From IMG/VR virus record IMGVR_UViG_3300009509_000006, positions 34,059 to 98,058 of that record: a stretch of 64,000 nucleotides of DNA; one strand, 5' to 3'. Position numbers and translations under genes: made by a program. Position 1 is the first letter of the stretch; every line of letters starts with the position of its first letter. Below, piece by piece: positions 32,974 to 46,333 of this stretch. The stretch is from a virus. The notes under the pieces were generated by a model. That model did not search any database. It was not told the DNA's origin and worked only from the letters and a program-made list of their open reading frames with translations.

Positions 32974-35001
32974 TCACCCCACGAGGAAAGGCATGGACCC
33001 CCACTCTCTCGCTGTGTCCACCGACAACCCCATCGAGTTCAGCGCATCCCGGTGCCCAGCAGCCACTGCATGTTGTTGCTCAACCATCCAGGCCTGGCTG
33101 TCCGGGTCATCGTAGGTGCTCAGGCCCATCAGGAACGGGGTCGGCGACACGTTCCGAACGGTCTTGAGCGAGTACAGTGCCCCGGCCATCGCGTCGGAAA
33201 CATCCTTTGCACCATTGCGTGGCTTGAGCACCTTGCGCTTCTCCCAGTCGGCCTCAAGGGACTGCAACTGGTTCAACACAGGGTTGTAGGCGTAACACGA
33301 CACGCGGTCCTCGTACAAAGCCTGCTTGAGAGTCTGGTACGGATCCCACGTTCTGTCCATCGAAACTTGATCCGTCGTGAACCCCTTCTTCGACAGCGTC
33401 TGCAAGCTGTCGATGGACTGCCACTGATCCATCGTGACGTGCACGATCGGGAATCCGTGAGCCTTCAGGTCGTAGACGAGTTGGCGGTACAGCGCGAAGT
33501 CGAGGTCCCCTCCGGGAGGTGGGACGATTTCGAGGATCAGGTCGATCACATACTGCGGTGCGAGCTCCTCGTAGACCCGGAGGCTCGAGTCCATTCGCCG
33601 CACCGGCACCTGCCCACCAATGTGGGCCATGCAGAGACCGGCCGAGCAGTTGTTCAGAGCGGGGTCGATGTGCACGTGGCGCTGCGCCGACGGATTCAAG
33701 AGTGGGATCAGCTTCTGCTCGGTCTCCTTGAATCCCGTGCGAACCGCGATCGCCCGCACAAGCTTCTCCCACAGGAAGTCGCCTCCAAGCGACGGGTCGA
33801 AGACCTCCGAGGTGAAAGGGTGCTCCCGAGTCGCATCCACCATGTCGTGGATCTTGTCTCGGCGTTGAATGAACGGCGAGACTGCGGTGGTTGCAATCCC
33901 GGCCAGGTCACGAATCGAGCCCTCGAGGTCGGAGGTGAACTCCGATCGCAGGTCCTCGGGAACCTCGATGAGCACTGTGCGCTCTGGTTGGTTCTCCTTG
34001 ATCAGGACAGCTTCGTCCTCTCCCAGAATCCGGGAGCGCACCTGCTCGTTGCCGCACAGTACGTAGAAGCGCCGGGGACCATAGTCGTCTGGCTTGACAT
34101 CCCAGAGTGCGTAGTCACGGACAAAGATCGTCGAGTCGTACTTCGCCGCTTCGATTCTCTGCTGGATGAACGAATCGTGCGTCGCCTTCGAGCTCGGGAG
34201 GAAGAGCTTGCCAGCGCGTCCATATCGCGAGTGGATCCGGCGCTTGATCGAATCGTACAGGTCTTTCGCCATGTTGACCGCGCCGAAACGGTCGTTCGCC
34301 TTCTTCTTCCTGACGGGCAGGAAGTTGCCCTCGTCGATGAGGCCAGCGATCAGGTTCATGCCGAGTGCGCCACGCGGCGTTGTCGCCCTGGAGACCACCA
34401 GCACGTTGTTGGGGAACCGGATGTTCTTCTGCGTGATCTTGAAGGGGAAGTGCTCAGCGAAGTAGGGGCTCTGCGCGATCTTGCCCACAACGTTCTTGAG
34501 CGCGACCTCTTTGGCCAGCTCCTCGTTCGCGCTGAAACAAGCAATCGAGATGGGGGCCTCTTTCGAAAGACCGTAGGCCCGCTGCGGCTGATGCAAACAC
34601 GAGAGCTCGTAGAGCATCCGACAGATGCCGATCGAGCACGAGAACGTCTTGCCCGTCCCGATCGCTCCCGTGAAGATCACCTCGCTGTACTGCCCATCGA
34701 AGACCTCGATCAGGTCATCGAGCAGTTGTGGGAAGATCACGTTGCACGTCTCGCCCAGATAGTACGGGTCGAGGATGAACGTGCGCATGTCGACGGGCTC
34801 GCGGATGTACTGCGCCGTCGCGATCTGGTCGACAACCCTTCTGCCTTCGTGCTCCAGGTCTTCGCCGAGCGCCTCCGCATACATCTGGAGCACGAGCTCT
34901 TTCTCGCCAGGCGAGAGCTTGTGGAATTCAGCAGCTACCAACTCTTCGAGGTCGTCGACAGTCTGCTCGCTCCAAGATCGACCCTGCTCCTCGTGGATCA
35001 T
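32974..35001 (-). CDS. terL: Terminase large subunit
   Basis: Walker A GAIGTGKT, Walker B GLIDE, nuclease motifs HIDPA...DQWQS...KDVSDA. Confidence 0.93.
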   Translation of the reverse strand: MIHEEQGRSWSEQTVDDLEELVAAEFHKLSPGEKELVLQMYAEALGEDLEHEGRRVVDQIATAQYIREPVDMRTFILDPYYLGETCNVIFPQLLDDLIEVFDGQYSEVIFTGAIGTGKTFSCSIGICRMLYELSCLHQPQRAYGLSKEAPISIACFSANEELAKEVALKNVVGKIAQSPYFAEHFPFKITQKNIRFPNNVLVVSRATTPRGALGMNLIAGLIDEGNFLPVRKKKANDRFGAVNMAKDLYDSIKRRIHSRYGRAGKLFLPSSKATHDSFIQQRIEAAKYDSTIFVRDYALWDVKPDDYGPRRFYVLCGNEQVRSRILGEDEAVLIKENQPERTVLIEVPEDLRSEFTSDLEGSIRDLAGIATTAVSPFIQRRDKIHDMVDATREHPFTSEVFDPSLGGDFLWEKLVRAIAVRTGFKETEQKLIPLLNPSAQRHVHIDPALNNCSAGLCMAHIGGQVPVRRMDSSLRVYEELAPQYVIDLILEIVPPPGGDLDFALYRQLVYDLKAHGFPIVHVTMDQWQSIDSLQTLSKKGFTTDQVSMDRTWDPYQTLKQALYEDRVSCYAYNPVLNQLQSLEADWEKRKVLKPRNGAKDVSDAMAGALYSLKTVRNVSPTPFLMGLSTYDDPDSQAWMVEQQHAVAAGHRDALNSMGLSVDTAREWGSMPFLVG

Positions 35002-35699
35002 GACGCCTCCGCTACGTCTGCTGCCTCATCTTCTTCGGCCTTCTTAGCAGCGAGTGCAAGCATCCGGTGGACAAGCCCGAGCGCCTTCTGTCGGCTCTTC
35101 GGGCTCTCGGCGACCTCGGCGAAGGCCGGCGCCGCCTGCGCAAAGCTGAGCGAGATCTGAGGACCCTGCTGGTCCACCTCGAGCACACCAAGATTCCTCT
35201 TCGTGATACCGAAGTCCATCTGGACCTGGGCGTAGGCTTGCAGGATCGCCCGTGCTTCTTTGACCTCGCGAACCGTACTCTTGAACAGCTTGTTGATGTT
35301 CTTCTCAGTCGTCGCGTCTATCTGGATTCGTTTCTGCTGCAGCCGGAACAATTCCTCGAGCTCCCTGAGCACATCGAGGCCCTCGGTGATCTGTGTCACT
35401 GCCTTCGTGTGCGTCGAGGGGGCAACCGAGCGAACCATCTGGGATGGCGGGATCTCCTTCGCGTACTCTGAGATCGCCCGGGCAACCGTCGCAGGCTTCG
35501 CATCCGTGTACTCGCCCTTCTCCTCCTGGATGAACCGAACGACGTCAGTGGTACGCCAGCCATTGACGATCCGCTCGTGGACCTGTTCGAAGCAGTCGAG
35601 CCCCTTCAGCCTGCTCGTGAAGTTCGGCTTCTTCTTCTTCTTGCGAGTCCTTCTCTTGCGACTCTGGGGCGAAATGGCGGGATTCGTGCGTGATTCCAT
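34998..35699 (-). CDS. Putative terminase small subunit
   Basis: Overlaps the terL start (ATGA); HTH-like N-terminus followed by a coiled coil. Confidence 0.65.
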   Translation of the reverse strand: MESRTNPAISPQSRKRRTRKKKKKPNFTSRLKGLDCFEQVHERIVNGWRTTDVVRFIQEEKGEYTDAKPATVARAISEYAKEIPPSQMVRSVAPSTHTKAVTQITEGLDVLRELEELFRLQQKRIQIDATTEKNINKLFKSTVREVKEARAILQAYAQVQMDFGITKRNLGVLEVDQQGPQISLSFAQAAPAFAEVAESPKSRQKALGLVHRMLALAAKKAEEDEAADVAEAS

Positions 35700-35704
35700 G
35701 GGAA

Positions 35705-35752
35705 GCCTCGCTTTACTATCGCCAGTCTAGGCGATACAGCGAAGCATGTCGA
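35705..35752 (-). promoter_or_regulatory. Putative late-operon promoter TCGACA-N17-TAGACT with the -10 box inside an inverted repeat
   Basis: -35 at 35747-35752 and -10 at 35724-35729; TATCGCC/GGCGATA arms flank the -10. Confidence 0.55.
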
Positions 35753-35760
35753 ATCGCGCC

Positions 35761-37542
35761 TTATTTCGCCTCGGCCCACGAGTAGCCCGAGTTCGCATCC
35801 ACTTCGCAGGGCACGTCAGGGATGAGCGGCGCCATCCCCTCGCGCATTCCGTCTTCCAGGTCGGCCTTCACCGACGAGATCAATTCGGGGTCGTCCCGGC
35901 ACTCACACACGATCTCGTCGTGCACCATGTGGACCATCTTGACGTCGTCGCCGTACTTGCGCATCCGGTGGTAGACACACCAGAGCGCCGCCTTGAGCCC
36001 GTCGGCTCCCGCGCCCTGGATCGGCGTGTTGAAAAACTCGTTCCGTGCGGTGTCCTTGTCGAGGTAGCGCAAGCGTCCCGCAGGCGTGTACGAGCGACCG
36101 GTCGCCTGCCCCTGCGCGAGCACGAGGTCCTGCCAGTACCGAATGAAGGGGTACCCTTCGAAGAACTTGCGCACGAACGTTCGGGCCTCGCGGAAGCTCA
36201 TCGCGACGCCGTAGTTCTTCTGGGCATAGATGACGAGCTTCTTTGCGCCGAGCCCGTATAGCAGCCCGAAGTTAAGCGGCTTCGCCTCCTGCCGCTGGTC
36301 GTCCGTGACCTTCTCATACGCCACACTCGAGACTATGCCGCCGGTCTTGCGATGCGGGTCGAGCCCACTGCGGAAGACCTCGAGCAGCGTCGGGTCCTGC
36401 GTGAGCTGCGCGGCAAGCCGGAGTTCGATCTGACCGTAGTCGGCCAGCACAAGAATCCACCCTGGCAAGGTTCGGAAGCAATCCCGAAAGGCCTTCAGCC
36501 GCGGGATCTGCTGCAGGTTCGGATTCGAGCTCGAGTAGCGCCCTGCGCCCGTGTACGGGTAGAAGCTCGTGTGGATCCGTCCCGTGACCGGATTGATGTG
36601 CTCCAGGTAGTCGGGCCCGAAGCTACTGATACGCTTCGAAGCCTTCTTGTAGTCGATGATCTTCTGCACGATCGGGTGCTCGCCAGCGAGCATCGCGAGC
36701 ACTTCTTCCTTCGTCGAGTCGACATCGATGTCGAGGCGCGCCAGGGACTGCTGGAGCTGCTCTGTGGAATTCAGGTTCCACACCGTGCCCATGTCTCCGA
36801 ACAGGCCGAGCTGCCCCCTCGGATGGGGCAACTCCCGGAGCAAGACGTCCTGGAGCAGCTTGAACTCGGCCTCATTCTTCTTCGCAAGCTTGAGCCACGA
36901 TGCCTTGTCGAGCCGGAATCCGTTCAACTCGATCGAGCTCTCCGGGAGGATCGCCTGAAACTCGAGCAGCGCAATCCGGTTCAGGCCAAGACTGGCGAGC
37001 TTTGGCTTGAGCTCATCGCGCAATGGCATGAGGTGCTGGACGTCTTCAGCAGCGTAGTCGAGCTGCACCTGTGAGAGCTCCTTGCGCGACCAGTCCGACG
37101 CTCCCATCGGGGGAGCGTCGACCGAGATCCCGAGGTCACGGATGCACAGGGACTCCAGGTCGTGGGGCTTGTTGCGCCCGTTGTGGATCAGGTAGCTGGC
37201 GCGCATCGTGTCGAAGACCGGCCACATCAAGGTATCGTAATGCCGCAGCAGCATCTTCTGGTCGAATTTCAGGTTGTGCCCGACGACAACCGGGTGTCCT
37301 TTGCCGACCTTGCATTCCGGGTTGTGCAGCGCGTCTCGAATCGGACCGAGCGTCTTCGTCCGAGCCATGTCGACGACGTTGACGCTCTTGCCCGTGTTGA
37401 TCTGGAACAAGCGGACACCGCCCTTGTGCGGATCCAGGCTCAGAGTCTCGGTGTCCAAGGCGACAACGGGAGCCTGATCGATCTCGTTCGCAATGCGCCC
37501 AAGGTCTTCGGCGTCGGTGACGTATTCGTAGTCTGGTATCAT
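35761..37542 (-). CDS. polA: Family A DNA polymerase with 3'-5' exonuclease
   Basis: Exonuclease motifs DTET, HNLKFD and YAAED; polymerase motifs GRYSSSNPNLQQIP, DYGQIELR, KPLNFGLLYG and VHDE. No 5'-3' exonuclease domain. Confidence 0.97.
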   Translation of the reverse strand: MIPDYEYVTDAEDLGRIANEIDQAPVVALDTETLSLDPHKGGVRLFQINTGKSVNVVDMARTKTLGPIRDALHNPECKVGKGHPVVVGHNLKFDQKMLLRHYDTLMWPVFDTMRASYLIHNGRNKPHDLESLCIRDLGISVDAPPMGASDWSRKELSQVQLDYAAEDVQHLMPLRDELKPKLASLGLNRIALLEFQAILPESSIELNGFRLDKASWLKLAKKNEAEFKLLQDVLLRELPHPRGQLGLFGDMGTVWNLNSTEQLQQSLARLDIDVDSTKEEVLAMLAGEHPIVQKIIDYKKASKRISSFGPDYLEHINPVTGRIHTSFYPYTGAGRYSSSNPNLQQIPRLKAFRDCFRTLPGWILVLADYGQIELRLAAQLTQDPTLLEVFRSGLDPHRKTGGIVSSVAYEKVTDDQRQEAKPLNFGLLYGLGAKKLVIYAQKNYGVAMSFREARTFVRKFFEGYPFIRYWQDLVLAQGQATGRSYTPAGRLRYLDKDTARNEFFNTPIQGAGADGLKAALWCVYHRMRKYGDDVKMVHMVHDEIVCECRDDPELISSVKADLEDGMREGMAPLIPDVPCEVDANSGYSWAEAK

Positions 37543-37559
37543 GGTATGTCCCCTACAGG

Positions 37560-37589
37560 ACTATACCACGTTAGGAGATGTATGGTAAA
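37560..37589 (-). promoter_or_regulatory. Sigma70-like promoter for the polymerase gene (TTTACC-N18-TATAGT)
   Basis: Extended -10 TGgTATAGT; shares GGTATA with the other promoters. Confidence 0.55.
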
Positions 37590-38056
37590 GATCCGGGTGG
37601 CAGCGAAGTGGCACCTGCGGCCTTTCGGAGAAGAGCCCGGTTGTGCTCGCGATCCCAGTAACCGTCCGGGTCGAAGTCCTGCCAGAGCATCTCGATCATC
37701 TGCTCGCGGTCCTGGACAGTATCAATCATCTCGTCGCTCGCCCACGTCATGCGCCATCGGTCAAGCGACATCGGGATGAAGTGCAGCTCCGATCCTTCGG
37801 GGTAGTTCGGGTCGAAAGTCTCTACGACGATCGTACCGTCCTTGCGCTCCTCCCGAATATGTCCGAACACGCCCCGGTACGATTTCCCGGTGTAGTCAGG
37901 CGCCACGGGGATGAGGAACAGAAACTCGGATACGTTGTGACTGGGCTCGGGCCCGTGCGCTTCGAATGCTCCGAGCGCCATGTCCTCCGTGTCCAAGTCG
38001 ACGACGCCCTCTTTGTAGAGGACAGTCCGGTAGATTTCTCGATACTGGAGAGGCAT
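37571..38056 (-). CDS. Acidic 161-aa protein coupled to the giant protein (candidate immunity/partner)
   Basis: Start MPLQYREIY overlaps the giant gene stop as TGATG at 38056. Confidence 0.65.
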   Translation of the reverse strand: MPLQYREIYRTVLYKEGVVDLDTEDMALGAFEAHGPEPSHNVSEFLFLIPVAPDYTGKSYRGVFGHIREERKDGTIVVETFDPNYPEGSELHFIPMSLDRWRMTWASDEMIDTVQDREQMIEMLWQDFDPDGYWDREHNRALLRKAAGATSLPPGSLPYIS

Positions 38057-41000
38057 CACGTCACCAACGGTTTGATGAAGTCCTCGTAGACCTCTTGGGC
38101 TTTGATGTTCGGCTTGTAGACAACGAATTCCTCGATGGGCACTCCGTTGTATTCGGTCAGGCCGCGCTGTGCGCACAGCTGCAAAAGGTTGGTCCTCGCG
38201 GCAGGGGAGCCACAGACGATTCGGGCCAGGCGCTGAATACTGACGCCCTTTCGGAAGCTCCACTCCATCTTATTCTTGTGGGTGACATTCTGGCTCTCAG
38301 CCAGTTTGTCCACGGAATCCCGCGTGTCGAAGGAACTGCCTTCGTCACAATGCCCGAACGAGTCACAGGGGTATCCGTAGAGGTCGAGCCGGTCGGCCAC
38401 ATCGGGCGTGAACACCTGCGCATACGCCGAAGGCTGCCACGTGCCACTGAACAATTCCTTGCCCGGAGCGGTCCCAGCCTGGGCAAAAGGCGTGAGCAGA
38501 ATACCATCTGCCGAACCGGAGTCGATGTCCGATTGCGGACTGATCCCGTAAGTCTCGGTCATTCCCAAGCCCAGTCGCTCATTGATACCGCCGGTTCCCT
38601 GGAGCATTACACCAAGCGGGCCGAGCGGATTGCCGGACACCGAGGTGAAAAATCGCAGGTTGCCGCCGGCGAGCTTCTTCCACCGGCCCTCTTGCACGTG
38701 CGTGACGTGCTCGTCCGTCTTGACGACCTTGATGTCGTCGATGTCTTTTTGAGAGTAGCCGAGCTCGGCGAGCCGTGCCTTGACCTTGTTGTAGTCGTTC
38801 AGGTCCGCATCGGACATCCGATACTTGTACTGCCCTGCCTTCGGGTGTCCATGCGGATACTTCGTTGGATTCGTCACAGAGTCTGGGTCGATGCACCAGA
38901 GCAGCCGGCGAGCCTTCATCATGCGCTCTTCCTTCTGCGTCGGCGGTCGGAACACCGTGTCCGACAAGCCGGGCTTGACCTTCTCGAGGCATCGGCGGAG
39001 CGCTTGGCCAGGCGTCTCTCCGGGCTTCGGGCGAATCTTTGCGTTCACCATGCCCATCAGGGACCAGCGACTCTTCTTCGTGGACAGGTAGACTTGCGAG
39101 CCCTGATCGCTCCACTTCGGGCCCTCTGTCGCAACCTTGGAAGAACGTCCGCATTCCTTGGCTTGGACGAAGCCGGCCTTCTCCTTGTACGTCCCAGTGT
39201 TCTCGTCATAGTCGGCTACAGGCCACTGGAACGACCCGTTCTGGTTGCTCGACAAGCCCTGCCACACCTCTTTCCTCAACTTGAAGTTGAAGTGGTAGTA
39301 GGTGTTTCCGTTCGTGTCGACAATCTTGCGGCACCTGGAAGCCATGCCTTCCACATCACCGCCGTCGCTGTAGAAGCCGTACCCCTTCGGCGTGTAATCG
39401 AGACCCTCGAGGTTCTCGAGGTCGTCGATATTGGCCTCCTGCTCGAGGTCATCCCAGGAAGCAAGAGTTGGGAGCTTGATTCCCTTTCCGGGCTCGGGCT
39501 TCGGGTAGGAACTCCCAGTTGTGACGGACGGTGGAGGAGCCGGCGGAGTGACATTGTAGTCCGGGTTCGGCATCTTGAGCTTGATCTTGCTCGTATCGAT
39601 ATGTCCGACCTCTGTCGCTCCAGGCGTCATGTCCGCGATCTTGACCTTGACCATGTTGTACGCGGACCCAGCGACGGGGCCCTCGTAGGGCACACCCGAG
39701 TCGTCCAGGATCTTCTGGAGATCGCCGAGCGACATACTGCCCGAAGGAACTTTGAGCATGGCCTTTCCAGGAATGTCTCCGGGCTGCGCGAACTGCGCCT
39801 TGATCTCCGTGAACTTGCCACCAGTCTGCGCAAACAGAGCCGAGACGTTCGAGTCGATCGTCATCGGGACTGCAGAGGGCGCCGGGGTCGGCGGGGGTAG
39901 GGGCGGCTCGGCCGTTTCGGGCGCAGCTGTCGATTCCCAGCCACCGGCGAACGTGAACTTGCCCTTCTTTGCAAACGGGTTGCCGAAGTGCCGCTTGTTG
40001 TAGGCCTGCGTGAGAAAGGCCTCCATGTCGGCCTTGAGATTCGCCTTGCGCGTGACACACGCTGACAAGAAAGCGTCGCGCCTCTTCTTGTTCGCCTTGC
40101 CCTGCATCTCAGGAACCGTGTTCGCGTAAGCCATGCACTGCGACTGGTACTCCTTCATGGGGATCGCATCGATGGCGTTGATCCGCGCCTCGAGCTTCTT
40201 CGGGTCGAAGTTGATGTTCCCGTTCGTCCAGGCATCCCAGAAGCTGTTGTAGTAGGGAGGGGCGCCGTTCGCGGCGTTCGGACCCGAGGAGGGGTCGAAC
40301 ATCTTCCAATGGCCGCCCTTCTTCTTCCATCCAAGGTAGTCAGTCAGGGAACTCTTCGTCCCCTTGTAGTCCATGAAGCGCCAGCCTTGCTCCTTGTCGA
40401 TGCCCACGATCTTGCCATTCGAGAGCATCATCAAGTTGCCCGCGTAGCTGTCATGCTGGCTCATCATCCAGTCCATGACATGCTCCTCGGCCACATTGAG
40501 CTGCTGGTCCTCTGTGAGAGAGCTGGGAGACACGCCTCCGAGCGTCTTCGAACCGGACAGCCATGGCTGAAGCGTTCCAGGTTCTCCGTTGGGGAGCGTG
40601 ACGTGCCGAACTGGAATGGCGTCGGGGTCTACCTTTCGAGCCATCACGGAGAATGACTGCTGGGCAGCAGCGGCGAAGGGCTTGTTGGCCATTGCCCCGA
40701 ACTTCTCCTTCGCCGACTTGTACAGGTAGATCTGTCCGTCCGGGCCCTTGTAGAAAGCCTTCGCCCCTGCTCCCGCGAGCGCCCCGGCCGTCTTCCCTTC
40801 GATCTTGTGGCTCGAGGGCAGCTTGGCCAAGTCCTCGAGTTTCGGGACGGTAGCGATCTCTGGGATCGGCTTCTTCTTCTTCGGTGCCGGCGGCGCCTCG
40901 AACTTGAACGGCCCTTCCACACCGGCGGCGTTCTGCACTGTCGTGAAGAACTTCTCGAAGTCAGCCCGGATGTTCTGTTTGCGCTGTAGCGCTTTCTGCA

Positions 41001-44000
41001 GGGCGCCCTCGTACTGCGCTCCGGGGGCGGCCAAGCTCATGTAGGGCTTGATCAGCGCCTCGTAGTCCTCATCCGAAAGAGCCTCGATCTTCTTGATTAC
41101 GGACGCTGCCGCATCGAAATCGAGATCAATGCTGCCGTCCCTGTGCGCCTGGTACAGTGCGGCGTAGACCGGGGGAGTAGCATTCTTCTGTTGCGCTCCA
41201 GACAGTTCGGCATCGATGCTCGTCGGCTCACCGCCCTGCACCATGAACTTGAAGGCCTGCTCCTTGTCGATCCCGACGATGCCGCCAGCCTTCGTGCGCA
41301 GGAAGTTGTCGCCCTTCGTATCATGCGAGCCCACCAGCCAGTCGAGCACGTGCTCTCGCAACAGATCGTTCCGCTGCTTCGAGGTCAGCGCCTTGATCTT
41401 CGACATCGGGACCTGGGTTCCGCCCTTGCCATAGCCAGGAGCGATCGTCCCGTTGTTCTCGATCATCGGTTGGATCGAGCCATAGCCCTGAGACGTCTGC
41501 ATCGCCTTGACGGGCACGTATCCGCCCGCGGGCATAATTGCCGCAGCCACTGCAGATACGACTTGCGCGGCCCGAGCCGCCTGCTTGGCTCCGCCACTCG
41601 CTCCAGGTTTGAACAGGTATATTCCGCCCTCGAGGTCCTCGAAGTAGCTCTTCGGCTTGATTCCCCCAAGCTCGGCCTGCGCCTCGCCAACGAACACGAG
41701 CTGGTTTCCAGACGTCGGCATATCGCTCGCGAGCGGCGGCACCGACCACTTCTTCTTTTTCTTGTTCTTCTCCTTCTCGTACTTTTCCTCCCAGTCCGCA
41801 CCAAGCGCCGCCGTCAGCAGCATCTTCTGGACCGGGGTCAGGCCGTCCGGGCCCATCACGCCCGCTTCCTTGAGTGTATCGACGACCTTCTTGTGAACCT
41901 GCTCCTGAGATAAAAGGCTCGGGTCTAGGGAAGGCGGGGCGGAAACAGCAGCCATGATAGCCGCTTCGTCGATGTCCGGGTCGGGCTTGTGGTACGGAGC
42001 GTACAGGCCCACCGCCTTGTGGGTCTGCTTCTTGAGCGTGTTGAACGTCGACGACTTGGCCAGCGAGTGCGCGGCCTTCAGGAGCTCGTAGGCCTCGTCC
42101 GCGAGCATCCCGAGGTCTTTCTCAACGGCCGACCCCGGGTATTCTTTCTTGATCCACTTGGCCTTCTGGAGCTTGTACGTCCCTGGAGGCCAGGCGTTCA
42201 CCATCTTTGCCAGGGCTTTCATGGCACCGTAGTGCACGGGCCAGATCTTCGGTCCGTACTGACTGCCCGGGAACGACCCTCCCTGCCCGAAGTATGTAAG
42301 TCCCCACGTTTCGCCGGAAGCCTTGAAGCTCTTGACCGCATTGAAAAACTTCTTGAATGCGGCAGAGCCCATTTTATTGACGTCGATCTCAGTCCATGGG
42401 GCCTCTGGCACTGTTGTCTCTGGAGCTTCCGTATCGAAGAAGCCGAGGAACTCGTCGATCTTGCCGTCCGCGAGGTCGCCCATGGCACCGACGAACTCGT
42501 CCTCGGACATCCCGAAGTGCTCGCCCACATCGGTCATATCGGCAGTGATGCCGAGCTCGGTGACAGCGTGAGCGAACTGGAGCGCCTTGTACTTCGCCTT
42601 CCAATCGTTTCCGGCGAGCTTGACGACGGCCTTCCCGAACGGCGTCTCCATGTCCACCGCGCTGATACCACCGATCGAATCGAGAGCGTCGCCGAAGTGC
42701 CCATACTTTGACGGGAACATGCCCAGCACTTCGCTCTTCTTCTTCGTCAGGTTGCCGAGCAGCGCCGCAACATCGGGCTCGGGCTCGAGCTCGGTAGCGA
42801 GCTCTTCGGGCTCTGGCTCAGGTGGCGGCGGAGGCGGAGGCGGGGTCTCGGCGTCCACGGGGGCAGCAGTCCCGATGCCATGGTTGAAATACGTGTAGAA
42901 CTGCTTCAGCGCCTCTTCCTTCGCTTCCCCTGGCGCTGCCGTCTTGACCTTGTTGGCGTGGAAGAATGCCAGCACGGTTCCTTGGTAGCTATTGAATCCG
43001 AACGCCTCCTTCAACTTGTTCAGAGTCGGCTCGCTATCCTCTGCGCTACCCTCCGGGTCAATATTGTGCAGGGCATAGGCGGCGAACTGGAGCGCCTTGG
43101 CCTTCTTCTTCCAGTCCGTCCCATGCTTTTCCTTGAACGTGCTCTGTGCTCCGGGGGACAACGTGTCGAGCCCGGCCTCGTAGACCGAATTCGCGAGCAC
43201 GCCGAGCGCCTTCGGGTGTGGCGGGAATCCGTTCAGGGCCTCGGCAGTCTGATTCGACGACATGGTGGGGAAGGCCGGCGCGGGCGGCACCGGGTCCTCA
43301 ACGGGCTCGGACACGAAGTCGAAGTCTTCCCACTCCTCCTCGGGCTCCGGCTCCGGGGGCGCAAGACCAGTCGCCTGGTGGTAGGCATCGTACATATCGT
43401 CGAGGGCATCCGCCTTCATGCCCTCGGGCTCGCCACCAAGGGTGCCCGCGATCGCCGCGAACTTCACGAAGTCGACCTCGTCGACACCCCCCATGCCCGC
43501 AGCATTCTGTGCCTTCACCCAGTTCTCACCAGAATCGTCGGGGAGCCCCGGCCCGCCCATGTTGTGGATGACCACGGCAGCCGCCGCCATAGCGTCCGCT
43601 TTCGTCATCCAGTCCGGGCCAATCGAGTTCGCGAGTGCGGTAGCAACAGGCGCCGGGAGATTCTCCGGGCCGCCGTTCGTCACGACAGCCACGCCGAGAC
43701 TCTTGTCCGGCTCGGGGTATCCCGCGAGAGCTGCCTTCGCCTGGTTTGCCGAGATCCCGTAGGGGGCCACGGGCTGATCGAACGGGTCGGGTTCGGGCTC
43801 CGGCTCGGGCTCCGGCTCGGGCTCCGGGGGCGGCGGCGCGGGAGTGGGCTCAGGCTCGGGCTCCGGCTCGGGCGGGGCGGGCTCTGGTTCTGGCTCGGGC
43901 TCTGGGGGAGACGGGGGTGGCGGGGGCTCCGGCGCCACGAGGGCAGCCGGAGTCGCCTTGGCGTACTGGTCCGCCCAGTCGTCGCCATAGTGCGCTTTCA

Positions 44001-44427
44001 TAGTGCCCGCGATCTTGTCGTCGCCCTGGAGCTCACCGAGATTCATGCCCTCGAGCTCCATGATCTTCTTCATGATCTCGATCGTGGGCATCTTGCCGGC
44101 CTTCTTCATCGCAGCCAGCTGCTTGCCGATCGTGCCTGGGTGGTCCTTCTGGATCTCGACGTCTGCCGGGATGTCCGTGACGTCCTTGTGTCCCGACTTG
44201 AGCGTGCCGATCACCTTCGCCGCCGCTGCGCTTCCCTCCGGCGGATCCATCAGCATCGGGAAGACCGTCTGAATCTTCCAGTGGGGAAACATGTTCGGCT
44301 GCGGCTTCTTCGGATCCTTCTTCTGCGGCGTCCACGTGTACACGAGGAGCGGCGTCATCTTGTAGAACGAGGCTTCGCACAGCGCGCTCAGCGGGACGAG
44401 AGAACCGTGCTTCTTCGGGCCAGGCAT
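38056..44427 (-). CDS. Giant (~2123 aa) multidomain protein: Pro/Glu linkers, two HipA/PI3K-like kinase domains, possible ART-like C-terminus
   Basis: GGAGGT ribosome-binding site before ATG 44427. Kinase 1: YLFK...EHVLDWLVGSHDTKGDNF...GIDKEQ. Kinase 2: YLYK...EHVMDWMMSQHDSYAGNL...GIDKEQ. Confidence 0.8.
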   Translation of the reverse strand: MPGPKKHGSLVPLSALCEASFYKMTPLLVYTWTPQKKDPKKPQPNMFPHWKIQTVFPMLMDPPEGSAAAAKVIGTLKSGHKDVTDIPADVEIQKDHPGTIGKQLAAMKKAGKMPTIEIMKKIMELEGMNLGELQGDDKIAGTMKAHYGDDWADQYAKATPAALVAPEPPPPPSPPEPEPEPEPAPPEPEPEPEPTPAPPPPEPEPEPEPEPEPDPFDQPVAPYGISANQAKAALAGYPEPDKSLGVAVVTNGGPENLPAPVATALANSIGPDWMTKADAMAAAAVVIHNMGGPGLPDDSGENWVKAQNAAGMGGVDEVDFVKFAAIAGTLGGEPEGMKADALDDMYDAYHQATGLAPPEPEPEEEWEDFDFVSEPVEDPVPPAPAFPTMSSNQTAEALNGFPPHPKALGVLANSVYEAGLDTLSPGAQSTFKEKHGTDWKKKAKALQFAAYALHNIDPEGSAEDSEPTLNKLKEAFGFNSYQGTVLAFFHANKVKTAAPGEAKEEALKQFYTYFNHGIGTAAPVDAETPPPPPPPPEPEPEELATELEPEPDVAALLGNLTKKKSEVLGMFPSKYGHFGDALDSIGGISAVDMETPFGKAVVKLAGNDWKAKYKALQFAHAVTELGITADMTDVGEHFGMSEDEFVGAMGDLADGKIDEFLGFFDTEAPETTVPEAPWTEIDVNKMGSAAFKKFFNAVKSFKASGETWGLTYFGQGGSFPGSQYGPKIWPVHYGAMKALAKMVNAWPPGTYKLQKAKWIKKEYPGSAVEKDLGMLADEAYELLKAAHSLAKSSTFNTLKKQTHKAVGLYAPYHKPDPDIDEAAIMAAVSAPPSLDPSLLSQEQVHKKVVDTLKEAGVMGPDGLTPVQKMLLTAALGADWEEKYEKEKNKKKKKWSVPPLASDMPTSGNQLVFVGEAQAELGGIKPKSYFEDLEGGIYLFKPGASGGAKQAARAAQVVSAVAAAIMPAGGYVPVKAMQTSQGYGSIQPMIENNGTIAPGYGKGGTQVPMSKIKALTSKQRNDLLREHVLDWLVGSHDTKGDNFLRTKAGGIVGIDKEQAFKFMVQGGEPTSIDAELSGAQQKNATPPVYAALYQAHRDGSIDLDFDAAASVIKKIEALSDEDYEALIKPYMSLAAPGAQYEGALQKALQRKQNIRADFEKFFTTVQNAAGVEGPFKFEAPPAPKKKKPIPEIATVPKLEDLAKLPSSHKIEGKTAGALAGAGAKAFYKGPDGQIYLYKSAKEKFGAMANKPFAAAAQQSFSVMARKVDPDAIPVRHVTLPNGEPGTLQPWLSGSKTLGGVSPSSLTEDQQLNVAEEHVMDWMMSQHDSYAGNLMMLSNGKIVGIDKEQGWRFMDYKGTKSSLTDYLGWKKKGGHWKMFDPSSGPNAANGAPPYYNSFWDAWTNGNINFDPKKLEARINAIDAIPMKEYQSQCMAYANTVPEMQGKANKKRRDAFLSACVTRKANLKADMEAFLTQAYNKRHFGNPFAKKGKFTFAGGWESTAAPETAEPPLPPPTPAPSAVPMTIDSNVSALFAQTGGKFTEIKAQFAQPGDIPGKAMLKVPSGSMSLGDLQKILDDSGVPYEGPVAGSAYNMVKVKIADMTPGATEVGHIDTSKIKLKMPNPDYNVTPPAPPPSVTTGSSYPKPEPGKGIKLPTLASWDDLEQEANIDDLENLEGLDYTPKGYGFYSDGGDVEGMASRCRKIVDTNGNTYYHFNFKLRKEVWQGLSSNQNGSFQWPVADYDENTGTYKEKAGFVQAKECGRSSKVATEGPKWSDQGSQVYLSTKKSRWSLMGMVNAKIRPKPGETPGQALRRCLEKVKPGLSDTVFRPPTQKEERMMKARRLLWCIDPDSVTNPTKYPHGHPKAGQYKYRMSDADLNDYNKVKARLAELGYSQKDIDDIKVVKTDEHVTHVQEGRWKKLAGGNLRFFTSVSGNPLGPLGVMLQGTGGINERLGLGMTETYGISPQSDIDSGSADGILLTPFAQAGTAPGKELFSGTWQPSAYAQVFTPDVADRLDLYGYPCDSFGHCDEGSSFDTRDSVDKLAESQNVTHKNKMEWSFRKGVSIQRLARIVCGSPAARTNLLQLCAQRGLTEYNGVPIEEFVVYKPNIKAQEVYEDFIKPLVT

Positions 44428-44520
44428 GGACACCTCCGACGCTTGCAATCCTCGTAGAGAATGGCGTTTCCACGGGATCCGTGTCAACCTCTACCCCGGT
44501 CCTTAGAGAAGGAGACGAAG

Positions 44521-45465
44521 ATGGACAGAATCCTTGTTGTGGGCGGCGCTGGCTACATCGGCGGCGCCGTCACCGATCTGCTGCTCGCAAACCATCTCGA
44601 GTTTCGGGTGCTCGACACCCTCCTCTACGAGGAGGTCTATCGCAAACCGGTAGCGTTCTACAATGTCGACGTCCGGGATCACGCGGCGCTCCTGCAGCAT
44701 CTGCCCTGGGCAGACATCGTGATCTGGCTCGCCGCCTTGGTAGGTGACGGCGCCTGTGCCATTCATCCGGGTATCACGAAGGCAATCAACCAGGATTCCG
44801 TGCAGTTCCTTGCGGACAACTTCGATGGCCGGATCGTATTCCCGTCTACCGCCAGCGTGTACGGTGTCCAGGACGACTTCGTAGACGAGAGCTCGCCGAC
44901 GAACCCCCTGTCGGTCTACGCCGAGACCAAGCTCGAGTGCGAGCGAATACTCGCCCGGAAAGACGCACTGATTCTGCGACTCGGGACGCTGTTCGGACTC
45001 GGGGACCTGTTCTCACGTATTCGCCTGGACCTCGTCGTCAACACAATGAGTGTGAAAGCGCAACTGCATGGGGCGCTCCAGGTGTTCGGGGGCCGGCAAT
45101 ACAGACCTGTCCTCCATGTCCGAGACGCCGCCCTCGCCATGTTTGCCTGTATGAACACCGGGTACTCTGGTGTGTTCGATCTGGTGCACGAGAACGTTCG
45201 GATCGGAGAGCTCGGACGGCGGATCGCGAAAGCAATCCCGGGAACGCGAGTCGAAGTCATCCCATGGGACAAAGCCGATACGCGCTCCTACCGGGTTCGT
45301 GGCGAGAAGGCCAAGGCGTTGCCTTTCAATTCCAGTCTGGGCATCGAGGTTGGTATCCAGGAGCTATCGGGCTTGGTGAGCTATGGGAGACTGCCGGACC
45401 CAGACAACCCGCGCTTCACGAACCAGCGCTACCTCTCGGCGTTCAACGACCGTTTGCAGCGGTGA
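44521..45465 (+). CDS. NAD-dependent sugar-nucleotide epimerase/dehydratase (extended SDR)
   Basis: GGAGYIG, STASVYG and YAETK motifs; AAGGAG ribosome-binding site. The only convincing plus-strand gene. Confidence 0.93.
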   Translation: MDRILVVGGAGYIGGAVTDLLLANHLEFRVLDTLLYEEVYRKPVAFYNVDVRDHAALLQHLPWADIVIWLAALVGDGACAIHPGITKAINQDSVQFLADNFDGRIVFPSTASVYGVQDDFVDESSPTNPLSVYAETKLECERILARKDALILRLGTLFGLGDLFSRIRLDLVVNTMSVKAQLHGALQVFGGRQYRPVLHVRDAALAMFACMNTGYSGVFDLVHENVRIGELGRRIAKAIPGTRVEVIPWDKADTRSYRVRGEKAKALPFNSSLGIEVGIQELSGLVSYGRLPDPDNPRFTNQRYLSAFNDRLQR

Positions 45466-46333
45466 ACGCAGCGAGCTCCTCGAGCATCTCCAGGATCGTT
45501 GGCGGCTCCGAGTAGCCGGCTGCGAGCCATAGCGCTTCGTTCACGTCGGGACGCTCCGTACTCAGGATCCGGGATACCGGCTTTCCAGAGGGCTTCGGCG
45601 TGATCTCGATCTCGTGGTCGAAGGAGTGAGCAATGCGCGCCAGGAGCTCGTACTTGTCGACCTCGTCGGCGGGGACGATGTGCTGCCTTCGGGGCAGCGT
45701 CGTGATGCCCGACCGGATGATCCCGACACAGATCTTCGCGAACTGGAGCGTGGTCATCCCGTTCCACAGGTGATCCGTGAAGCCGAAGGCCTTCTCCTGC
45801 GACAGCAGCCACTCAAGCAAGAAGTGCTTTCGCCCTCTCTCCGGTCCGATTACAGAGGTGCGGAGATGCGAGACACTTGGCAGATTGACTTCGCCGAGGC
45901 TCTTCGTCTTTCCGTAGACATCGGGCGCGTCGTGCGGCGTACTCTCCGGGATCTCTTCGCAGTGGTTGCCGAATACGCAGTCCGTCGCGATCTGGAGGAT
46001 GTGCGTACCGGTCTTGCACGCCGCGTCCGCGAGCAGGTGTGGGAAGACCACGTTGACGTGATTCGCGACGAACACATCCTTTGCCGATTCCTCCTGGATG
46101 TGCGGCTTCGTGATACCGATCGCGTTGATTGCCCACTTGTGCCCCTGGAGGATCTCGTGGACAGCATCTGGGTTGAAAGCGTCGAACAGCTGCCACGACA
46201 CGCCCGGCGTCGGGGGCGGCGGGCATCGCTTCATGTCGCGGAATGTCGCGAGCACCTGGTAGTCGGCCTGGCGCAGGATCTCGACGCACATCGAGCCAAG
46301 CATGCCGGTTCCGCCAAACACTACAACAGCCAT
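45443..46333 (-). CDS. rmlD: dTDP-4-dehydrorhamnose reductase-like
   Basis: GGTGMLG, ATDCVF, YGKTKSLGE and RTSVIG motifs. Confidence 0.9.
   Translation of the reverse strand: MAVVVFGGTGMLGSMCVEILRQADYQVLATFRDMKRCPPPPTPGVSWQLFDAFNPDAVHEILQGHKWAINAIGITKPHIQEESAKDVFVANHVNVVFPHLLADAACKTGTHILQIATDCVFGNHCEEIPESTPHDAPDVYGKTKSLGEVNLPSVSHLRTSVIGPERGRKHFLLEWLLSQEKAFGFTDHLWNGMTTLQFAKICVGIIRSGITTLPRRQHIVPADEVDKYELLARIAHSFDHEIEITPKPSGKPVSRILSTERPDVNEALWLAAGYSEPPTILEMLEELAAFTAANGR

Follow-up and report, generated by a model that had tools for sequence, protein, structure and literature searches.

Large proteins that join several host-modifying enzymes in one chain have been described in phages and conjugative elements as polyvalent proteins (Iyer et al. 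2017). Their typical domains include ADP-ribosyltransferases (ARTs) and a particular kinase group, and they are predicted to be packed in the virion and injected, so that phage proteins with several enzymes and a probable route of delivery by the virion are already known (PMC5512222; PMC9503650). MuF toxins with immunity genes are likewise known (PMC5576092, PMC11699363), and these, together with Bxa/Bsi/BAH of a Bacteroides stercoris prophage, have a C-terminal enzyme, often an ART, that is followed by a small cognate gene. A functional precedent is T4 Alt, a large head-packaged ART that is injected with T4-type phage DNA and whose Alt/VIP2 family is named in PMC9503650, and DarT is known from the bacterial side, as the anti-phage toxin of the DarTG defense system (PMC11543638). 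We describe here a giant gene in a 64,000-nucleotide stretch of viral DNA (the window), which corresponds to bases 34059-98058 of the 98-kb IMG/VR contig IMGVR_UViG_3300009509_000006, with an estimated completeness of 57%. We favor, with moderate confidence, a reading in which its 2,123-residue product is a multi-enzyme ('polyvalent') phage effector, most likely cargo that is packed in the capsid and injected, and what appears to be new is that it is a T4-like, two-kinase, MuF-less variant of the polyvalent and MuF-type effectors.

What the analysis establishes directly is the modeled folds of the domains, the conservation of catalytic positions, the pairing of the gene with a small neighbor, and synteny. 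A first-pass annotation made from the sequence alone had proposed one gene at 38056-44427, and this holds: the frame is open over 38056-44487 on the minus strand (2,143 codons), and the likely start, an ATG at 44427 preceded by GGAGGTG, gives a product of 2,123 aa. Searches with the whole protein against Pfam, PHROGs and PDB sequences return no family match, and a low-complexity Pro/Glu match alone. The domain order that we propose is a variable, repeat-bearing N-terminus, two kinases resembling CtkA and PI4KII, a beta-rich and helical module, and a DarT-like ART, with a coupled acidic protein encoded next. The polyvalent-protein description calls for at least two effector-type domains per polypeptide, and two predicted kinases and one predicted ART are found here. 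The principal features are as follows.

38056..44427, minus strand: the whole giant gene, 2,123 aa plus stop, with ATG at 44427 and one intact frame.
40912..41745, minus strand: kinase domain K1, aa 895-1172, with beta-3 Lys940, the loop H1035-D1036-T-K1038-G-D-N1041, and metal-binding D1054 in GIDKEQ.
39928..40764, minus strand: kinase domain K2, aa 1222-1500, with Lys1237, the loop H1325-D1326-S-Y1328-A-G-N1331, and D1344 in GIDKEQ.
38059..38748, minus strand: predicted DarT-like ADP-ribosyltransferase domain, aa 1894-2123, placed by invariant residues and the fold model.
37571..38056, minus strand: acidic partner open reading frame (ORF) of 161 aa, pI 4.6, whose start overlaps the stop of the giant gene.

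The two kinase domains are homologous and lie where the first-pass annotation had placed them, each spanning about 280 aa, with 29% identity over 262 residues (E 1e-29), far beyond chance. The motifs that it listed are all found in the sequence, including the Y-L-[FY]-K lysine (IYLFK / IYLYK), EHV-x-DW-x4-HD-x4-N and GIDKEQ in both K1 and K2, as are the differing catalytic loops and the Pro/Glu linkers. In an alignment of 66 non-redundant kinase copies (A2), the beta-3 Lys, the catalytic-loop Asp and Asn, and the IDKEQ Asp are invariant or at least 90% conserved in both copies, and Lys940, the loop residues, and D1054 of K1 are invariant across 25 full-length homologues. An AlphaFold model of K2 built from the 66-copy alignment (pLDDT 89.7, pTM 0.90) has a bilobal kinase fold and aligns with CtkA over its full length, and a Foldseek comparison of this model with the PDB gives 63 matches at E<=1e-3, nearly all of them to PI3K, PI4KII, LepB, CtkA, MavQ, and other kinases. 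The duplicated domain therefore models as the kinase-like fold that had been proposed for it, with best matches in the very families that were named (CtkA, PI3K/PI4K, and HipA-type). Sequence comparison is far less telling. When the 66 copies are scanned singly with Pfam, the only recurrent families are PI3_PI4_kinase (PF00454; 15 of 66, best E 0.0058) and HipA_C (PF07804; 10 of 66, best E 1.9e-4), K1 and K2 of the window match neither of these, and a profile search of PDB sequences with the kinase alignment yields nothing meaningful, such that structure comparison alone is informative.

Helicobacter pylori CtkA (PDB 3akk), the type II PI4-kinases, HipA/HipT, and Legionella LepB/MavQ share only 10-13% identity with the kinase of the giant protein, and in contrast to the CtkA/PI4K group the domain is here a tandem duplicate with two types of catalytic loop. 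The kinases of polyvalent proteins are said to be without a C-terminal lobe (PMC5512222), whereas our model aligns with CtkA over its full length; the polyvalent-protein description could fit the Q-P motif and the EH-x8-HD spacing of the giant protein, the kinase groups being compared by description only.

The two loops, HDTKGDN in K1 and HDSYAGN in K2, reflect a division that runs through the family. The third loop position is Lys in all 12 of 12 first copies of two-kinase proteins (D-x-K-x-x-N) and nowhere else, and second or single copies have His, Phe, or Tyr at this position in all cases (D-x-[H/F/Y]-x-x-N). From this split it would seem that K2 represents the ancestral type, from which K1 diverged as a paralogue; the D-x-K-x-x-N of K1 is the loop form of Ser/Thr protein kinases. 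The loop difference is compatible with two kinase specificities, as the first-pass annotation had supposed, but these are only suggested.

The C-terminal 200 or so residues had been likened to ART domains of phage proteins, and of this the ART fold stands and an Alt-like type does not. The strings ER-x-G-x-G, GISPQSDIDSGSADG, RLDLYGY, and EWSFRKGV are present as listed, and a model of aa 1640-2123 built from a 49-sequence C-terminal alignment (A3) reaches a pLDDT of 91.1, with the last ~200 aa modeled in an ART fold. In a structure comparison with 48,161 chains, DarT1 and three other DarT structures occupy ranks 1-4 with the whole DarT chain covered, the best matches being DarT1/DarT2 of DarTG (PMC11543638; PDB 8baq, 7omv, 7omu, 7yk3). 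Tpt1, OspC3, CteC, CopC, Scabin, and pierisin come next, and every one of the top 15 or so chains is an ART.

Nine residues are invariant in the 49 sequences (R1951, G1961, D1967, G1971, R2013, D2015, D2022, G2025, and E2055) and S1963 is nearly so. In the secondary structure of the model, R1951 lies in the beta-1/beta-2 loop, S1963 follows beta-2, and E2055 opens a strand (model residues 416-420) after the long loop that follows beta-4. By this secondary-structure layout, the counterparts in DarT1 would be R52, S63, and E152, whose roles have been described (PMC11543638); R1951 is 12 residues away from the conserved Ser, and the spacing in DarT1 is 11. The likeness would consist of a candidate for the NAD-loop Arg (R51/R52 in DarT proteins), a Ser after beta-2 as in DarT1, and a predicted catalytic Glu in the expected order, at positions that are invariant or, for S1963, nearly so. 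On these grounds we call the C-terminal domain DarT-like in fold and, probably, in mechanism, without assigning it to the DarT family itself. It differs from DarT in having only ~10% identity, in scoring under the Pfam cut-off, in missing the beta-1 His, and in being fused to a 1,900-aa phage protein where DarT is a stand-alone host defense toxin; moreover, there is no DarG macrodomain or NADAR partner, and the partner encoded downstream forms a conserved family of its own.

Weak Pfam DarT matches in three relatives and matches to baculovirus and iridovirus proteins in BFVD also point toward a DarT-like assignment. An ORF28 family of arthropod DNA viruses has been described as DarT-related (PMC9503650). 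Within the available part of that text 'DarT-like' is applied only to this insect-virus family, and DarT has 0 occurrences in PMC5512222. A profile search of PDB sequences with the C-terminal alignment gives nothing meaningful, and a search of the ESM Atlas with the ART part gives low-score leads only (OspC, DarT, and ART-PolyVal), which we do not count as evidence.

We considered an Alt-like ART (R-S-E, PF03496) and rejected it for the giant protein, which has no such Pfam match; some kinase-bearing relatives do carry PF03496. Alt is an ART of the R-S-E type, without a kinase or a known coupled partner. The ART here belongs, by its model, to a DarT-like branch, and no sequence or structural match to Alt is seen. 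As to what this ART modifies, we would give somewhat less than an even chance to a base in a nucleic acid, which is what DarT, Scabin, and pierisin modify, a protein is a serious contender of slightly lower probability, and what little remains falls to something else.

The small partner gene is coupled to the giant gene closely and widely. An ORF of 110-165 aa starts between -6 and +21 nt from the stop in nearly all related viral loci, 71 partner ORFs form one BLAST cluster, and a hidden Markov model (HMM) built from the relatives' partner ORFs matches the 161-aa protein of the window over its full length (E 1e-7). The partner gives no Pfam, PHROG, or ESM Atlas lead and matches no macrodomain, NADAR, or other known family, and jackhmmer started from the single partner sequence converged empty. 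The partner HMM also matches ORFs after ART-bearing bacterial genes (41 of 78 ORFs), including those after Saccharibacteria genes that have the ART and no kinase, and since the partner follows kinase-less ART genes as well, it travels with the ART and not with the kinase. The arrangement in which a small, apparently cognate gene follows a toxin-type C-terminal enzyme is that of the MuF toxins, with the predicted partner conserved in more than 70 loci, and as its association with the ART is what would be expected of an immunity or inhibitor protein, the partner probably has such a role and represents a new family.

Relatives of the giant protein are numerous. A search with the kinase region recovers 62 proteins of 1,167-3,716 aa, about 33 of which have both kinase copies at 29-40% identity, and because these ~33 homologues of similar length retain both kinases and the C-terminal module, the features of the giant protein are conserved and not specific to the window. 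BLAST against the homologues shows that the N-terminal ~890 aa are not conserved, that K1 and K2 are, and that the proteins invariably end in a C-terminal module of ~450 aa. In IMG/VR 79 loci were recovered, many with proteins of ~1,100-1,150 aa that have one kinase and the same C-terminal module, and among metagenomic proteins 2,559 clusters (50% identity) match an ART-domain profile at E<=1e-3. In contrast, tblastn with the DarT-like module finds no match in 50,697 GenBank phage records, even at E 10. Members of the family occur in temperate phages of small size, in prophages of mycobacteria and gut Bacillota, in genomes of CPR bacteria (Saccharibacteria), and in large T4-like phages. Cultured strains with the ART module in their genomes make experiments possible: Ruminococcus sp. 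AF41-9 and Thermoanaerobacterium sp. DL9XJH110 have the kinase-ART form of ~1,130-1,150 aa, and in Mycolicibacterium sphagni ENV482 and Mycobacterium hubeiense QGD101 the ART is present but no kinase was detected with it. Kinase-less proteins of 480-870 aa with the DarT-like ART are encoded in many genomes of Saccharibacteria and other CPR bacteria (loci L090-L157), often with the small partner after them, and two Shapirobacteria ORFs of 2,915 and 4,160 aa hold the DarT-like ART internally.

The phage from which the window derives is T4-like, with a gp23-type capsid protein, a gp20-type portal, an S77 prohead protease, and an estimated full size of ~170 kb. T4-like phages are mostly lytic. The portal protein is only ~34% identical to that of the nearest GenBank phages, and the lineage is therefore a deep, uncultured one. 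On the minus strand, the giant gene and its partner are followed on the 3' side by genes for a family-A DNA polymerase (PolA), a 233-aa protein, and the large terminase (TerL), and then, on the same strand, for the T4 gp20-type portal, two unassigned proteins, the S77-type prohead protease, and the gp23-type major capsid protein. The order of giant gene, partner, PolA, 233-aa ORF, TerL, and portal is kept in ~30 T4-like loci (32974-38056, minus strand, in the window; L002-L033 and L045), and the giant gene is thus a core component that heads the packaging module. We also note that in T4-like phages one would not usually expect a DNA polymerase gene to separate an effector gene from the packaging genes.

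Evidence that bears on delivery comes from the shorter relatives. Those of ~1,100 aa have an N-terminal Phage_Mu_F domain (E 1.6e-13 to 2e-6 in L034, L039, L046, and L062) and lie between the portal gene and the protease and capsid genes; the order in L062 is terminase, portal, MuF-kinase-ART, small partner, protease, and capsid. These are true MuF fusions beside the portal gene, as in the MuF toxins, whereas the giant protein is MuF-less and belongs to a T4-like phage and MuF toxins have been reported almost only in temperate phages (PMC5576092). Among named phages with deposited records, the nearest case is gp54 of the mycobacteriophage McProf, a MuF-kinase-ART protein whose gene follows the terminase and portal genes and precedes a small 122-aa ORF, the scaffold, and the capsid genes. 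No GenBank phage genomes other than those of the mycobacteriophages McProf and Aikoy have a detectable kinase homologue, and the identity is 27-32%; McProf gp54 (L081) is annotated as minor capsid/ART and Aikoy gp15 (L082) as minor capsid/ART or ART, and the kinase copy is unannotated in both records. Metagenomic proteins with MuF and kinase in a mycobacteriophage-like layout carry a PF03496-type ART, unlike the giant protein. Together, the MuF-fused relatives in head modules make packaging of the giant protein in the capsid a reasonable inference.

A plausible course of events would be as follows. The giant protein would be made late, together with the head proteins, while the small partner, acting as an inhibitor or immunity protein, would keep the ART silent inside the cell that produces both, and the giant protein would be packed in the capsid and exit with the DNA. 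Once in a new host, the kinases would use ATP and the ART would use NAD+, and host targets may be modified early for take-over or counter-defense.

There are, however, a number of observations that weigh against a packaged effector with active kinases and a DarT-like ART. All of the Pfam kinase matches among the relatives lie under the curated cut-offs (for example 28.8 versus 30.5 bits for HipA_C in P0048), and in two relatives the second kinase is without the catalytic Asp and/or Asn (HATHGGT and SNTHAGN). These degenerate second copies, located at L045:10064-10864 and L009:13976-14794, are probable pseudokinases, and therefore not every kinase copy must be active. In DarT1, H17 on beta-1 (the H of H-Y-E) contacts the NAD+ ribose (PMC11543638), and this His is not conserved; the first-pass annotation was right that the expected first His is missing, the beta-1 position being occupied by Ser1929 in the window and by N, A, Q, or S in most relatives, with His seen only in a subset of short-form relatives. 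The Pfam DarT model (PF14487) matches three relatives at E 8e-4 to 3.5e-3, all under the curated cut-off (reported score 19.6 bits versus 22.5), and finds no match over the whole contig even at E 10; with the same model there is no true DarT in the control genomes. A DNA-directed ART would also endanger the phage's own DNA. Finally, the giant protein has no Pfam match to Phage_Mu_F (PF04233) at E<=1, and a recognizable capsid-targeting leader was not found at its N-terminus, where the leader MRDLI..EG..LLE is absent on reading the sequence. As there is neither MuF nor leader here, its packaging is extrapolated from relatives with a different N-terminus.

This last point lends some weight to an alternative that we regard as unlikely, in which the enzymes are real but unpackaged and act in the producing cell, on host or phage proteins or on phage DNA during replication or packaging, with the partner as a regulator. 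It would account for a protein with no MuF or other known head-targeting domain, for the position of a clade-wide core gene directly upstream of the DNA polymerase gene, and for the nucleotide-sugar genes immediately upstream. It sits less well with the fusion of the kinase-ART cassette to MuF in the canonical minor-head position in many phages and prophages, and with the combination of a variable N-terminus and a constant enzymatic C-terminus, which is the pattern of delivered effectors (PMC5512222, PMC5576092). We consider it quite improbable that the protein serves chiefly in the structure or assembly of the head, with kinase-like and ART-like domains that are pseudoenzyme scaffolds or binding modules, because the residues that are invariant in 25-66 diverse sequences are the catalytic positions, namely the kinase Lys, D-x4-N, and metal Asp and the ART Arg, Ser, and Glu, and because a small partner that is so closely coupled and co-varies is what one typically sees with toxic enzymes. 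A structural role would nonetheless agree with a core gene in fixed synteny beside the terminase and portal genes, with the fact that in some relatives one of the kinases no longer has its catalytic Asp or Asn, and with the missing beta-1 NAD-binding His. Scarcely credible is a MuF-type polymorphic toxin of lysogens, released at prophage induction to kill non-immune neighbors and with the small gene as immunity, which would fit the C-terminal toxin and downstream small gene of the MuF toxins (PMC5576092) and Bxa/Bsi (PMC11699363) and the prophage copies in Bacillota and Mycobacterium genomes but not a gene that is core in a T4-like clade, on the contig of a ~170-kb T4-like phage of a generally lytic kind, when MuF toxins are reported almost only in temperate phages (PMC5576092).

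Returning to the packaged, multi-enzyme effector, we found no published description of the cassette of kinase and DarT-like ART, of the small partner family, or of the tandem-kinase, MuF-less form as a core gene in a T4-like lineage. Neither the combination of kinase and DarT-like domain nor the small partner is described in PMC5512222 or in the available part of PMC9503650, and the word 'kinase' is absent from the text of PMC5576092. Head-packaged ARTs such as T4 Alt and the MuF toxins are known although few have been studied, and this case defines a very large unnamed family, in which an atypical kinase, the DarT-like ART, and the small partner are the constant elements. From the recurrent fusion of the kinase to two classes of ART, the PF03496 type and the DarT-like type, it would seem that phosphorylation and ADP-ribosylation are functionally linked, an idea that is testable at the bench. 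If the ART acts on nucleic acids, the system would be a mirror image of the DarTG defense system. A bolder proposal, to which we give rather low odds, is that phages have made a DarT-type nucleic-acid ART into a capsid-delivered weapon that would modify host DNA or RNA on entry, jointly with one or two dedicated kinases to which it is fused in many kinds of phage and under the restraint of a new, non-enzymatic immunity family, and that in one lytic T4-like clade the cassette is now a core gene that the phage cannot do without.

The remaining parts of the giant gene are less conserved or less readily assigned.

44431..44437, minus strand: Shine-Dalgarno-like GGAGGTG, 3 nt before the ATG, read from the sequence.
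41746..44427, minus strand: N-terminal region of variable sequence, aa 1-894, which contains repeats and linkers rich in Pro and Glu, conserved in the closest relatives only.
42547..43770, minus strand: three clear repeats of ~76 aa with a G-x-DW-x-x-K motif, at aa 220-295, 385-460, and 555-627.
39511..39927, minus strand: Pro-rich linker and variable segment of ~140 aa, aa 1501-1639, poorly conserved among homologues and with no Pfam match.
38749..39510, minus strand: conserved beta-rich domain (~aa 1680-1800) and helical segment (~aa 1805-1893), which precede the ART in kinase-bearing relatives.
38737..38835, minus strand: possible HeH / Rho_N-like helix-hairpin-helix motif, aa 1865-1897, SDADLNDYNKVKARLAELGYSQKDI, just before the ART.

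In the N-terminal region, Pfam gives a low-complexity PE match and nothing else. Partial copies of the repeat occur near aa 139-162 and 858-884. An HMM of the repeat matches each of the three clear copies at E 1e-34 to 1e-39, values that are circular as the HMM was made from them although the copies align well, and it has several weak matches in the N-terminal regions of homologues. The putative HeH-type motif is placed at aa 1865-1897 from the helical model and the sequence pattern, and weak Pfam matches among family members are to RecX_HTH1 (three members) and Rho_N (one member); the motif, if real, would favor a nucleic-acid target for the ART.

The contig as a whole has a G+C content of ~61% and no tRNA genes. 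Directly 5' of the giant gene, at 44461-46333, lie a gene for an NAD-dependent epimerase/dehydratase on the plus strand and one for an RmlD-like reductase on the minus strand, both of which belong to a nucleotide-sugar cluster; phage DNA, if it is modified, could escape a DNA-directed ART.

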